Shown: positions 2,598 to 7,344 of the stretch, piece by piece | Numbering within the stretch: position 1 is the stretch's first letter | How the letters are laid out: every line of letters begins with the position of its first letter | NCBI GenBank assembly: GCA_048213135.1 | Contig: PS015319.1 | Span: 64,701 to 115,472 of the forward strand | Origin: Reclinomonas americana ATCC 50394 | Lineage: Eukaryota | DNA length: 50,772 bases | Direction of reading: 5' to 3' | The notes under the pieces: generated by a model | What the model was told of the DNA's origin: nothing | What the model saw: the letters and a program-made list of their open reading frames with translations, nothing else | Database searches by the model: none | Made by a program: the position numbers and the translations under genes

Positions 2598-5500
2598 ATG
2601 TCGGTGAGTTGTATTGATTGAGTGGGGGACGCTTGTTGTTCGCTTGCTTCTCCTTGTCTTCTCTCTCTCACTCATCGCTTGTCGTTCACTGTCCTTGTGT
2701 GTCGCAGTTCTCTGTGCCCGTGAGTGCGGCGCATGATTCATCGCTGTCGGTGGTGGTGGAAGGCATGTCGGCCACATCAACTCTCGCGGAGTTGCTGCGT
2801 GAGGCTACTCGCTTGCTGCGTGAGAAGAGTGGCGATGGGGAGATGGAGATTGTGGGGGTGGAGAAGCCACTGCCATTTGACGTTGAGCTGATGAGTGCGG
2901 CGCCGCTTCGTGGACTCGGCATCAACTCATCCACGCACCTTGTTGTCCGTCTGACACTTGGCGTGGTGATGCAGTCGAGTGGAGGAGGTGGAAGTGAGAG
3001 TGGAAGGTATGTGTTTGTGAATCATCCTCTATGGCAACATGCAACTCACTCTCATGTCTTCGCACAGCAACTCGGAGCGAGTGACTCGGTTTGTTTTGTT
3101 TGCCTTTGTCATCCTTCCTCTCTCTCTTCCTCGTTCTTCCTCTCGGATTGAGTCTGTGCTGATTGTGTTTGTGTGCACGTGCAGCATGATCAACTCGCAG
3201 CGCATCAACATGGCCTTTGAGGTGGTGGAGGAGGCCGTGCGTCTGCGCTGTCAACGCGTACTGGCGCAGTTCAGTCGCGATCACTCCGACTTTGATGTGC
3301 GGGCATGGGCAGCAGACATATGGTCTCCACGAATGGGCCTCAGTGGCATCAAAGCCTGGCGAGAGCGTCATGCTCCACTCCACCCCTCTCGAGTCAAGTT
3401 TTTCGAGGAGAAGCAGCCGGCGATGTTGGCCTGGCATGCGGCATTCGACGCCGACTCCTCGTCCGACCCTTCGTGTGACGGTTTTGACACGACAGCACTA
3501 ACCTCCATCATGATGTATGGTGGCTTTGTTGAGGATGACAGTCGCAAGCTGCTGCTGATTGACGATGTTGATGAACGGAAGGCTGTGGAGGAGCTGCGTG
3601 ACGTGAGAAATGAGATGGTTCATGGTTCTTTGGCGTGGACGGATGTCACTGTGCAACATTACCTTGGTGTCGATGGTGTATTCCTTTACATTCTCTCTCG
3701 ACTACGGTTGACGGCTGACGAGCGAGCTCGATTCTCTTTTCGCATCTGCGAGGCACGTCACGCTCGTCACATTATTGACACATTCGAGGAGCGACTGCAT
3801 CGACTTGCTATTCGTGAGCTCTCCTTCTACCAGCACGATGAAAGTGTGCGGAAGGACATGCAGATGTATGTGCCACTGTTGTGCTCTCGTGATCATGACG
3901 TCTCCGCGGTAGACAAGATGACGGATCTGTTGGCGGAGGTGGATTCTTTCCTCTCCGACACCAACACCACCCAGCGTGTCCTGGTGCTGTTGGGCAACAG
4001 TGGAGCCGGCAAGACGACTACCATGTCGGTGCTGGCTGAGCGCGCATGGCGGCAGTGGCAAACGAGAGAGAGCAGGCGAGTACCAGTGCGTGTGCCTCTT
4101 GGTGCACTGCGCAATGCCGATGAGCGATTGTTGGAGGAGGCACTTGAGCGACTGTCACCCGAGTTGGGATTGGAGTCGGATGTACGGCGGCTGAAGGAGG
4201 AGCCATTGCTGTTGTTGCTTGACGGGTACGATGAGTTGTATCGTGGTGTGAATCTGTTTGTCAAGAACCAGTTGGATGTGTGTCGCGATGTGAAGGTGAT
4301 TATCACCTGTCGAGGCGATTACGCACTGACGGCATTGGGTGGAGCGGCGCAGTATCGACGGTACTTTGCGCCGGTGGATGCACGGGGACAGTTGTGCACG
4401 CAGCAGTTGATGGAGCGACACATTGCGCCGTTCAACAAGGAGCAGATTGAGGAGTACTTTGAGCGACTGGTGCAAGCGGGTGGTGGTGATGACGATGACG
4501 TGGAATTACGGTGGTCGACTGCCGAGGAGTATATTCGTGCACTGAAGAGTGTGCATGGACTGGATGCACTGGTGTCGAATCCATTCCTGTTGGCGGTGGT
4601 GGCTCGTGTGTTGCCGCAGTTGGTGGCGAGTGGTGTACAACGACCGACTCGATGTGATGTGTTTGACCGGTTTATTCGACAGTGGATTGAGAGAGAGCAG
4701 GAGAGGCAGACACGTCTCGGTGCGGAGCGTGTACCGAGTGAGGAGACGTGTCTGGCATTCTGTGAGGGACTGGCTCGGTTGATGCATGAGAGGAACGTGG
4801 TGCGTGCGTCTGTGATGGAGAGTCGATCAAGTGAGGATGACTTTGGTGGTGCGCCACTCGATCGACGAAGAGTGGAAGAGGGGCCATTTGACAAGTTTCT
4901 TGGCCACAAGAACCAGCATGTGCGAGTGTGCTGTCCGATTGTGCGACGGTATGGGACGACGCAGTGGGGATTCGTGCATCTGTCGTTGCTAGAGCACTGT
5001 GTGGCACGACATGTGTTTGCGTGGGAGATGTGGGATGAGGAGAAGAGGTTGACAATGCAAGATGTGCAGCAGCATGTGTTGGCTGTGCGATTGCTGAATG
5101 ATCGACCATCGCTGGTGGAGCAGATGGCGGAGGTGGTGCGACGGTCTCCTCGACTACAAGAGAGACTGTGGAAGGTGATTGAGATGTCACGGGTGGTGGA
5201 TGAGGAACGACTGGTGACGGCAGCAGCGAATGCCGCGACGGTATTGTGTGTGGCACAAGTGTCGTTCAGTGGGCGAGATCTGTCGGGTGTGCGAGTGAGG
5301 GGTGCGGATTTGAGGGATGCTGTGATGCACAGGACAGTGTGGAGGGGAGCGGATTTACGAGGAGTGAATCTGTGCATGGCGTATGCGAGAGAGGCGGATT
5401 TCAGAAGGGCGGATGTGACGGGAGTGAGGTGGCCGAGGAAACCGATGGAGGGGCACACAGATGCCGTACAATGTGTCGCTGTCACCCCCGACGGTCAGCA

Positions 5501-7344
5501 CGTGGTGAGTGGGGGTGTTGATGCATCGGTTCGAGTGTGGTCGCTGGCAAGCGGCGAGGAGGTGCTGCGATTGGAGGGACACAGTGATGAAGTGATGACA
5601 GTCGCCATCACCCCAGACGGCCAGCGCACTGTGAGCGGTAGCGTGGATGGTACGATACGAGTGTGGTCGTTGCCGACGGGCGAGCAAGTGCAACTGCTGG
5701 ACGGGCACACTGATCCAGTGGAATCTGTTGCCGTCACGCCCGATGGTCAGTACGTTGTTAGTGGTAGTATGGACAAGACTGTACGAGTGTGGTCACTGAC
5801 AACTGGGGAAGAAGTGCGACGATTTGCGGGACATGATGGGCTTGTGTCTGCTGTCGTCATCACCCCCGATGGTCAGCATGTGGTGAGCGGGAGTTGGGAC
5901 CAGACCGTGCGAGTGTGGTCGCTGAGCGGGGATGAAGTTCAACGGTTGGAAGGACACACTAACTGGGTGCATGCAGTGGCAGTGACCCTTGACGGCCAGT
6001 ATGCTATTAGTGGGAGTCAGGACCGGTCGGCGCGTTTGTGGTCACTGGCAAGTGGTGCGGAAGTGCGACGGTTTGAGGGCCATTCGTATGCAGTAACGTC
6101 TGTTGCAGTCACAGCCGATGGCCAGCACGTTTTTAGTGGGAGCGATGATAGGACGGTGCGAATGTGGTGTGTGGCGAGTGGAGAAGAGGTGCGACGGTTG
6201 GAGGGGCACACTGGTCCAGTAATATCTGTATCAGTCACTCCCGATAGTCAACATGTTGTGAGCGGCAGCACTGACAAAACGCTGCGTTTGTGGTCGATTG
6301 CTAGTGGAGACGACGTGCGACGACAGCATGGGCACACTGGAAAGGTGCTTGCTGTCGCCGTCACCCCAGATAGTCAACACATTGTGAGCGGAAGTGAAGA
6401 CACCACTGTGCGAATGTGGTCGGTGGCGAGTGGAGAAGAAGTGCGGCGATTGGAGGGAAACACGTGGCCAATCGTGCTCAGTCGCTGTCACTCCCGACAG
6501 CCAGTACGTGGTGAGTGGTGGTCGGGACTGGACTGTGCGAGTTTGGTCTGTGGCGAGTGGAGAGGAAGTGCGGTGTTTCGATGGGGATGCTGGAAAGGTA
6601 CGATCCGTTGTCGTCACTCCCGATGGTGGGTGCATTATCTGTGGCAGTGACAACAACCTAGTACGTGTATTGTCCTTGGTGACTGGACTCGAGGTGTGGC
6701 TGTTTGCGGGACACACCGACATTGTATATTCCGTCGCAGTCGTTTCGGACTGCAAGCATGCTGTGAGTGGGAGCAAGGACAAAACAGTGCGAATGTGGTC
6801 CCTGGTGACTGGAGAAGAGTTGCGACTGTTTGTGGGACATACGGACAAAGTGCGGTCTGTCGCGGTCACTTCCGATTCACAGTACGTTGTCAGTGGGGGT
6901 CGAGACAAGACTGTCCGTCTGTGGTCACTGAATAGCGGAGACGAAATTCGGCGGATGGAGGGACATACGGAGGGGGTGCGTTCCGTTGCTGTCACTCACG
7001 ACGGACATCATGTTGTGAGCGGCAGCGATGACCAAACAGTGCGTATATGGTCACTGGCGAGTGGCGAGGAGGTGCAACGGTTGGTCGGGCACACGGATGT
7101 GGTGTATTCTGTCGTTGTCGCTCCCGACGGCAAGCACATTGTGAGTGGCGGTCGAGACAGGACAGTGCGGGTGTGGTCGGTGGTACGAGACTCTGAGATC
7201 GAGATCGCAAGTGTGTGTCACGGCACAGACGCCACTGCCGATCGTACTAATCGAGTAGATGGCGAGACGATGAACGCAGGGATGCTTGTGCGGATATGTG
7301 GTGCATTCTTCATGCCTGATTTTACTGATGCGTTGTATGAGTAA
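2598..7344 (+). CDS. NLR-like STAND NTPase: UBL-like - HEPN - NACHT - pentapeptide repeats - 14 WD40 repeats (one frameshift near 6474)
   Basis: Exons 2598-2603, 2708-3006, 3068-3088 and 3185-7344 have compatible phases. Motifs: Walker A GNSGAGKTT (from ~3993), Walker B LLLLDGYDE, IITCR, NPFLL, winged-helix FVHLSLLEH, AAANAATVL..FSGRDLSGVRVRGADL pentapeptides, and GH..V..VAVTPDG..VVSGS.D.TVRVW repeats continuing in ORF 6394-7344. Confidence 0.9.
5451..7180 (+). repeat. Array of 14 WD40 coding repeats (~126-nt unit)
   Basis: 14 units counted from GHTDAVQC to GHTDVVYS, each 41-42 aa. Confidence 0.9.

Follow-up and report, generated by a model that had tools for sequence, protein, structure and literature searches.

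What kind of effector does an NLR-like receptor gene of the protist Reclinomonas americana ATCC 50394 carry at its N-terminus, and could the product of this gene act by cutting RNA? The gene in question lies on the plus strand at positions 2598-7344 of a 50,772-nucleotide (nt) stretch of contig PS015319.1 (positions 64,701 to 115,472 of the forward strand; assembly GCA_048213135.1), which we refer to as the window and to which all coordinates apply. A sequence-only reading of this DNA, made without database searches, had proposed one intact gene for a receptor that joins a ubiquitin-like (UBL) exon and a HEPN ribonuclease (RNase) head to NACHT, pentapeptide and WD40 modules. Judged from its sequence, the locus is a gene for an NLR-like STAND protein of ~1487 residues once a single frameshift is read through, with an exon structure predicted from splice signals. 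We propose that this protein comprises a possible UBL exon, most likely a divergent HEPN RNase head with the motif RNEMVH, a NACHT domain with intact motifs, a helical region, pentapeptide repeats and 14 WD40 repeats, and we assign this overall reading a probability of roughly 55%.

The chassis of the protein is its most readily classified part. The NACHT domain, the pentapeptide repeats and the WD40 array all score above the curated Pfam cut-offs (Table 1), and the Walker A (GNSGAGKTT), Walker B (LLLDGYDEL) and sensor-1 (VIITCR) motifs align with those of 11 relatives, as do a pre-NACHT YVP motif and the NPFLL motif. Since Walker A, Walker B (DGYDE) and the sensor-1 arginine are conserved across these relatives, the motifs of the nucleoside triphosphatase (NTPase) appear intact and the enzyme looks competent, which bears out the earlier classification as a NACHT-pentapeptide-WD40 protein of the STAND/NLR type. 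The 14 WD40 repeats, which share a mean pairwise nucleotide identity of 63%, would suffice for two propellers of seven blades each.

With residues 200-740 of the main open reading frame (ORF) as query, 39 relatives at expect values (E) <= 0.001 were recovered among 8000 scored candidates, the best at E 1.6e-48 with 30% identity and 94% coverage. Those with names are mostly hypothetical NACHT-pentapeptide-WD40 proteins of Mortierellomycota (Dissophora, Mortierella, Linnemannia and Entomortierella); a few relatives stem from other eukaryotes or from metagenomes, and kinase domains occur in some. The similarity to the Mortierellomycota proteins and the few other eukaryotic ones runs from the pre-NACHT YVP motif through the pentapeptide repeats into the WD40 array, and on these alignments the chassis is a known, if unstudied, NACHT-pentapeptide-WD40 family. 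The heads, however, differ. Those of the Mortierellomycota-type relatives are often ~600 residues long and unlike either the head or the UBL exon described here, none of them matches the HEPN_Swt1 profile introduced below, and across all 39 relatives phmmer detected no similarity of the heads to our two elements (<= 3.1 bits). To judge from this comparison, heads are exchangeable on the NACHT-pentapeptide-WD40 chassis. A scan of genome contigs with the NACHT region as query returned no match, and tblastn found no paralogs of the pieces of the gene within the window.

In front of this chassis lies the segment on which the question of RNA cleavage turns. As quoted in the sequence-only reading, RNEMVH and, 41 residues upstream of it, FDTTALTSIMM are encoded on the plus strand in the same frame, and RNEMVH falls within a profile-matched stretch (DERKAVEELRDVRNEMVHG). 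The hexapeptide has the Rx4-6H form that marks HEPN domains, in which Arg is usually followed by Asn, His or Asp, and its Asn at position 2 and small residue (Val) at position 5 fit the HEPN motif rules of 10.1101/760058 and PMC9646362. By our estimate, a stretch of 265 residues would be expected to hold a bare RxxxxH by chance.

Three methods, in part independent of one another, all point to the HEPN clan for the head. Among Pfam families, HEPN_Swt1 (PF18731) is the only one reported for this region, at E 0.03 and 15.1 bits over residues 129-148. A second profile was made from bacterial HEPN_Swt1 domains: 24 of 401 genomes of one phylum held a match over the cut-off, and 23 domains were aligned. 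Against this profile the head scores 13.8 bits (E 2.5e-6, single sequence) over DERKAVEELRDVRNEMVHG; as controls, 42 other proteins, 39 of them the scaffold relatives, reach at most 1.9 bits, and the other 714 of the 715 six-frame ORFs of the window at most 3.9 bits. Over its 19 residues, this match to the HEPN_Swt1 profiles is not chance-like. In hhalign comparisons the N-terminal helix (residues ~8-30) aligns with helix 1 of the family, FDTTALTSIMM with its LD..LL.lm helix and the following segment with the RN..H helix, all in family order and co-linear over 112-133 columns. The 112-column alignment scores 26.9, a value that none of 300 shuffles reached (12.8 +/- 2.6), and the reversed head sequence scores 13.0. 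The two nearest ESM Atlas clusters of the head are HEPN_DZIP3 (0.78) and HEPN_Swt1 (0.76).

Several observations weigh against a HEPN head. The PF18731 score is below the gathering cut-off of 27.5 bits, and therefore the HEPN assignment is not a call of family membership. The HMMER alignment covers just ~19-20 residues around the motif, Pfam HEPN_DZIP3 (PF18738) was not reported for the head at E <= 5, the hhalign probability is only 16-22%, and the part preceding the motif is marginal when aligned alone, its score being reached by 4 of 120 shuffles. By the tool's own scale the two ESM Atlas values are leads only, and AlphaFold2, run without an alignment, returned an all-helical model with a predicted local distance difference test (pLDDT) value of 38.2, too low for use. 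Furthermore, no homologs of the head were found in a word-indexed search, with phmmer over 1.84 billion representatives or in a metagenome contig scan.

The PDB sequence search with the head yielded chance-level rows only (E >= 0.55), and the PADLOC and NCBIfam scans gave 0 families. Two phmmer hits to bacterial proteins of the multi-PAS histidine-kinase type (E 2e-8 and 6e-4) were judged spurious because a short ELRDV...-like linker, repeated 3-5 times in these proteins, sums the similarity around the motif, a case which illustrates that repeats can inflate phmmer scores. A putative second HEPN copy at residues 197-226 was also rejected (-1.6 bits). We consider the head to be a divergent, orphan HEPN of the Swt1/DZIP3 type with a confidence of roughly three in four. 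Of the HEPN domain claimed earlier, a probable Swt1/DZIP3-type signature (profiles, hhalign and ESM Atlas) is retained, but at scores below the family thresholds.

The position of this head agrees with published architectures, which include HEPN domains immediately N-terminal to NACHT or STAND (PMC3710099, PMC9646362). In silico analyses described DZIP3/hRUL138-type HEPN domains fused to NACHT, CARD, DEATH, LRR and other domains in animals, expansions of the DZIP3 type in Nematostella, oyster and Capsaspora, HEPN-NACHT fusions of the CXorf38 type, and bacterial HEPN domains of the Swt1 clade fused to STAND-TPR (Anantharaman et al. 2013, PMC3710099). In the pearl oyster, a DZIP3-like HEPN stands at the N-terminus of more than 50 NACHT proteins, and WD40 or TPR tails occur on some NACHT proteins (Takeuchi et al. 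2022, PMC9646362); HEPN also occurs in metazoan death-domain architectures with WD40 (Kaur et al. 2021). The novelty that the sequence-only reading implied for a HEPN head on a NACHT scaffold is not supported, as such heads are known in animals (PMC3710099, PMC9646362). Since HEPN-NACHT fusions have already been described there, the locus is a variant and the HEPN-on-NACHT principle is not new.

Whether a ubiquitin-like segment precedes the head depends on the gene model. By inspection of the sequence we predict a three-exon eukaryotic gene (Table 1), the spliced product of which needs one frameshift to be read through. The donor at 3007 follows two codon bases (phase 2) and base 3185, directly after the matching acceptor, supplies the third (AG + C, a Ser codon); therefore the frame continues from exon 2 into exon 3. 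Scored with a codon-usage table that combines the main ORF with a second gene in the window, exon 2 reaches 0.389 bits/codon in the proposed frame and negative values in the other five; its score is higher than that of any other segment tested, including the head region (0.284 bits/codon). This score is reached by 2% of 249 best-of-six-frame windows taken elsewhere in the window, and intron 2 scores negatively in all three frames. Exon 2 looks coding, and we infer its splicing to the head, with which the sequence is consistent. That splicing and expression of the gene are both predictions counts against our overall reading.

Table 1. Features of the NLR-like locus (window coordinates; residue numbers count from Met 3186).
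Feature	Positions	Strand	Basis and remarks
Exon 1, coding end	2598..2603	+	ATGTCG (Met-Ser) with GTGAGT donor directly after; predicted
Putative intron 1	2604..2707	+	104 nt, GTGAGT...CAG, GT-AG borders, pyrimidine-rich interior; predicted only
Exon 2, candidate UBL (beta-grasp) with Gly/Ser-rich tail	2708..3006	+	99 codons; translation and codon usage
Putative intron 2	3007..3184	+	178 nt, GTATGT...CAG, canonical borders; predicted only
Exon 3: head, NACHT, pentapeptide, WD40, stop codon	3185..7344	+	ORFs 3039-6650 and 6394-7344; one frameshift
Probable Swt1/DZIP3-type HEPN	3207..3710	+	Residues ~8-175; helix 1 separated from helix 2 by a long insert
RNEMVH, candidate HEPN catalytic motif	3606..3623	+	R141, N142, H146
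NACHT NTPase domain	3975..4469	+	Pfam PF05729, E 7.5e-10, 39.3 bits, cut-off 26.7
Post-NACHT helical region	4470..5282	+	Within 30%-identity alignments to the NACHT-pentapeptide-WD40 family; APF..Q and NPFLL motifs
Pentapeptide repeats	5283..5426	+	Pfam PF00805, E 4e-8, 33.1 bits, cut-off 20.2; PF13576 weaker
14 WD40 repeats	5451..7212	+	Pfam WD40, E 1.7e-86 and 2.1e-55 (two frame pieces)
Frameshift by one additional base where WD40 repeat 9 starts (variable part)	6456..6480	+	Repeat length comparison
C-terminal tail of ~43 residues without repeats, and stop codon	7213..7344	+	Translation

The peptide quoted earlier for exon 2, FSVPV...VVVEGMSATSTLAELLREA...LRGLGINSSTHLVVRL, is indeed encoded at 2708-3004. 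A further point against our overall reading is that the exon has no sequence-level support for a UBL, with no Pfam family matching at E <= 1, no PDB chain at E <= 10 and nothing in PADLOC or NCBIfam. In the ESM Atlas, 23 of its 30 matches are unnamed clusters (~0.91), and the six named clusters among the matches listed all belong to the ubiquitin family (ubiquitin, Rad60-SLD and TUG-UBL1) at 0.87-0.90, values that are leads only. The AlphaFold2 model of the exon has a pLDDT of 44.6 and passes from a strand through a helix, a second strand and a short helix to a last strand. Foldseek with this low-confidence model found nothing in the PDB at E <= 0.001, and the matches that it listed include no ubiquitin-like chain; its top rows, gyrase/topoisomerase fragments, are meaningless given the poor model. 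A beta-grasp fold for exon 2 is plausible but unproven, and the ubiquitin-like assignment made earlier is weak, with ubiquitin-family leads but no Pfam, PDB or Foldseek match.

The alternative that survives best is that exon 2 lies outside this protein or is not ubiquitin-like, and that translation starts at ATG 3186 to give a HEPN-NACHT-pentapeptide-WD40 product; we place it somewhat short of even odds, and it is compatible with the HEPN assignment. The in-frame ATG at 3186-3188, directly 3' of the acceptor, would provide the alternative start. The failure of the exon to match Pfam, NCBIfam, PADLOC or PDB sequences fits this explanation, as do the low pLDDT with no ubiquitin-like Foldseek match and a splice deduced from sequence signals. 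Against it stand the codon-usage score of exon 2, the highest among the segments tested and confined to the proposed frame, and the canonical donor and acceptor of matching phase. The uniformly ubiquitin-family affiliation of the six named ESM Atlas clusters among the matches listed and the strand-helix order of the low-confidence model also argue for retaining a candidate UBL exon.

A second alternative concerns the integrity of the gene. The sequence-only reading treated 2598-7344 as one intact gene and missed the frameshift in WD40 repeat 9. The frame from 3186 stops at 6648-6650, and the remaining WD40 repeats lie in the +1 frame, which is open from 6394 to the stop at 7342-7344. It is a point against our overall reading that the gene is thus split into two frames and that 2598-7344 is not one open frame even when spliced. 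With the array cut into 14 units, repeat 9 measures 127 nt and 12 of the 13 others 126 nt (repeat 4 has 123 nt), and repeat 9 has GN, not GH. A tiny intron near 6460 that would repair the frame was rejected, the sole GT..AG there spanning 8 nt. Downstream of the shift, 290 codons are still open and contain five regular WD40 repeats; therefore, the frameshift either arose very recently or reflects an error of the assembly. In its draft state the window contains 9 N-gaps, which sum to 3261 N in 50.8 kb (e.g. the gaps at 12196-12622 and 19399-20003), and small assembly errors in such a scaffold are therefore plausible.

If the extra base is real, the locus would be a recently inactivated pseudogene of an NLR-like family, with a product that ends at 6650 after 8 intact repeats and ~60 out-of-frame residues. 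This explanation, which is likewise compatible with the HEPN assignment, is possible at below even odds. It accounts for the observed frame change and for the GN dipeptide of repeat 9, and the site has no homopolymer that could explain a sequencing slip. NLR-type families, moreover, typically turn over by birth and death. It has to be set against the open frame and regular repeats that follow the shift, which imply either a very recent change or an assembly error, and against the gapped draft state of the assembly.

The third alternative makes the head a helical domain with an adaptor or signalling role, specific to its lineage and with a chance ELRDVRN..H-like stretch; such a head would signal by recruiting partners and would not cleave RNA. 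This alternative is unlikely: it would suit a sub-threshold match to essentially one helix, the missing Pfam HEPN_DZIP3 match, the unusable AlphaFold2 model, the lack of homologs to show constraint on R and H, and the precedent of some Swt1-type HEPN domains that are catalytically inactive binders (PMC3710099), but it runs counter to the agreement of the three methods on the HEPN clan, the clean negative controls of the profile, the motif, in which Arg is followed by the preferred Asn and position 5 holds a small residue, and the placement before NACHT as in known HEPN-NACHT proteins.

Based on the preferred reading of an NLR-like protein with a HEPN RNase head, we hypothesise a ligand-controlled switch. 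By extension from the families concerned, the WD40 propellers would keep the protein off until a ligand binds. Ligand binding could then lead to nucleotide exchange in the NACHT domain and to oligomerisation, by which the HEPN heads would be brought together, and the juxtaposed heads may cleave RNA and cause translation arrest or death of an infected or non-self cell. Oligomerisation would switch on RNA cleavage because HEPN RNases cut only as dimers; characterised HEPN nucleases all need dimerisation and two juxtaposed Rx4-6H motifs (10.1101/760058). The sequence-only reading had arrived at this chain of events too, and the same mechanism was inferred earlier for animal HEPN-NACHT proteins (PMC3710099). 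Of all this, the present sequence displays the domain content, the intact NTPase motifs and the signals of the gene structure, whereas the HEPN fold, its catalysis, the trigger, a role for the UBL and expression are proposed. As a working analogy, the sensor-driven assembly of RNase L and Ire1, which have HEPN domains of the KEN type, also juxtaposes two HEPN domains and activates RNA cleavage (10.1101/760058). In contrast to these enzymes, the protein described here has, by the Pfam scan, neither a kinase or pseudokinase nor an ankyrin sensor, and it gave no match to the KEN family.

A more far-reaching version of this proposal is that a poorly sampled lineage, for which the databases searched offer no close relative of the head or of the genes next to it, independently assembled an RNase-L-like suicide switch from a UBL, a lineage-specific active HEPN, a NACHT domain and a double WD40 propeller, and that the UBL gates or targets the nuclease. 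We regard this version as doubtful. If true, an NLR scaffold would for the first time be seen to carry a UBL-HEPN head, and the protein would be a non-animal case of HEPN-based NLR immunity.

NACHT-WD40 proteins with an exchangeable N-terminal effector also include the NWD proteins HET-E and HET-D of Podospora, which are non-self sensors. They share with the present protein a NACHT domain followed by a WD40 array. However, the head described here has no HET domain (the Pfam scan reports HEPN_Swt1 only), and a pentapeptide linker is present. NWD genes are also distinguished by a very high internal identity of their repeats, whereas the repeats here are 63% identical on average.

The closest functional comparison is with the animal HEPN-NACHT proteins of cnidarians, amphioxus and bivalves, which are NLR-like, carry an Rx4H HEPN with Asn after Arg directly before NACHT, may have WD40 or TPR sensors, and are predicted to be RNA-targeting immune or death effectors (PMC3710099, PMC9646362). 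The protein from R. americana differs from them in three respects: its head has no Pfam HEPN_DZIP3 match and no detectable homolog, its NACHT belongs to the pentapeptide-WD40 family and not to the animal proteins found so far, and a candidate UBL precedes its HEPN. The bacterial HEPN domains of the Swt1/Abi2 clade give the best profile match of the head and likewise lie N-terminal to an NTPase (PMC3710099). Common to both is the signature (E)L(R).(R)N..(A/V)H, with a D..(L)..(L)(M) helix in front of it, but the bacterial proteins are prokaryotic and have other NTPases and sensors, and the similarity is sub-threshold. The 23 bacterial HEPN_Swt1 loci sit mostly in open frames of ~1100 codons with another architecture, which may be HEPN plus an AAA+ ATPase (PMC3710099).

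Precedents for the UBL are more distant. Sacsin combines an N-terminal ubiquitin-like domain and a HEPN in one protein (PMC3710099), but with Hsp90-like and DnaJ modules between them and without NACHT. At the N-termini of fungal NLRs, a Crinkler domain, which belongs to the ubiquitin clan, has been reported (PMC9815663); the UBL exon, however, matches neither the ubiquitin nor the Crinkler models of Pfam. A UBL-HEPN head on a NACHT-pentapeptide-WD40 chassis is not described in the literature searched, and the supplements of PMC3710099 and PMC9646362 may list some.

HEPN-headed NLR-like proteins are abundant in some animals, and none is described as biochemically characterised in the literature consulted. 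If the head described here is an active HEPN, the same logic, in which a repeat sensor and a STAND switch control a dimerisation-activated RNase, would operate on a different chassis in another eukaryotic lineage. Such a finding, if true, would favour the view that eukaryotes and bacteria have repeatedly put together RNA-cutting immune receptors from modules. Encoded in a single exon, the compact unit from head to NACHT would offer a tractable construct for asking whether a HEPN nuclease is switched on by NLR oligomerisation. Should the gene be dead, or the head be something other than a HEPN, the locus would represent one more orphan-headed NLR-like gene.

The gene is flanked by low-complexity DNA. 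Pyrimidine-rich CT arrays occur upstream at 2170-2300, and long purine-rich arrays of the GGGAAG/AGAGGG type, with a GC skew of up to 0.70, extend directly 3' of the stop codon from 7345 to 9400. An ORF of 96 codons with a hydrophobic N-terminus (7504-7794, plus strand) begins 160 nt downstream of the gene and has no Pfam match. The Rfam scan gave 0 matches. Elsewhere in the window, the minus strand at 47296-47943 matches the REJ domain weakly, right at the threshold (E 8e-6, 25.2 bits against a cut-off of 25). A prenylcysteine lyase-like ORF (31564-32820, plus strand; Pfam E 1.3e-41) had no relative at E <= 1e-10 in the word-indexed search, which fits a poorly sampled lineage. The ORF at 36925-37506 on the plus strand, uninformative for placing the lineage, contains Ribosomal_L13 (Pfam E 2.2e-34) and is probably a nuclear gene for a mitoribosomal protein, since the uL13 proteins that match it best in the PDB are mitochondrial and bacterial.

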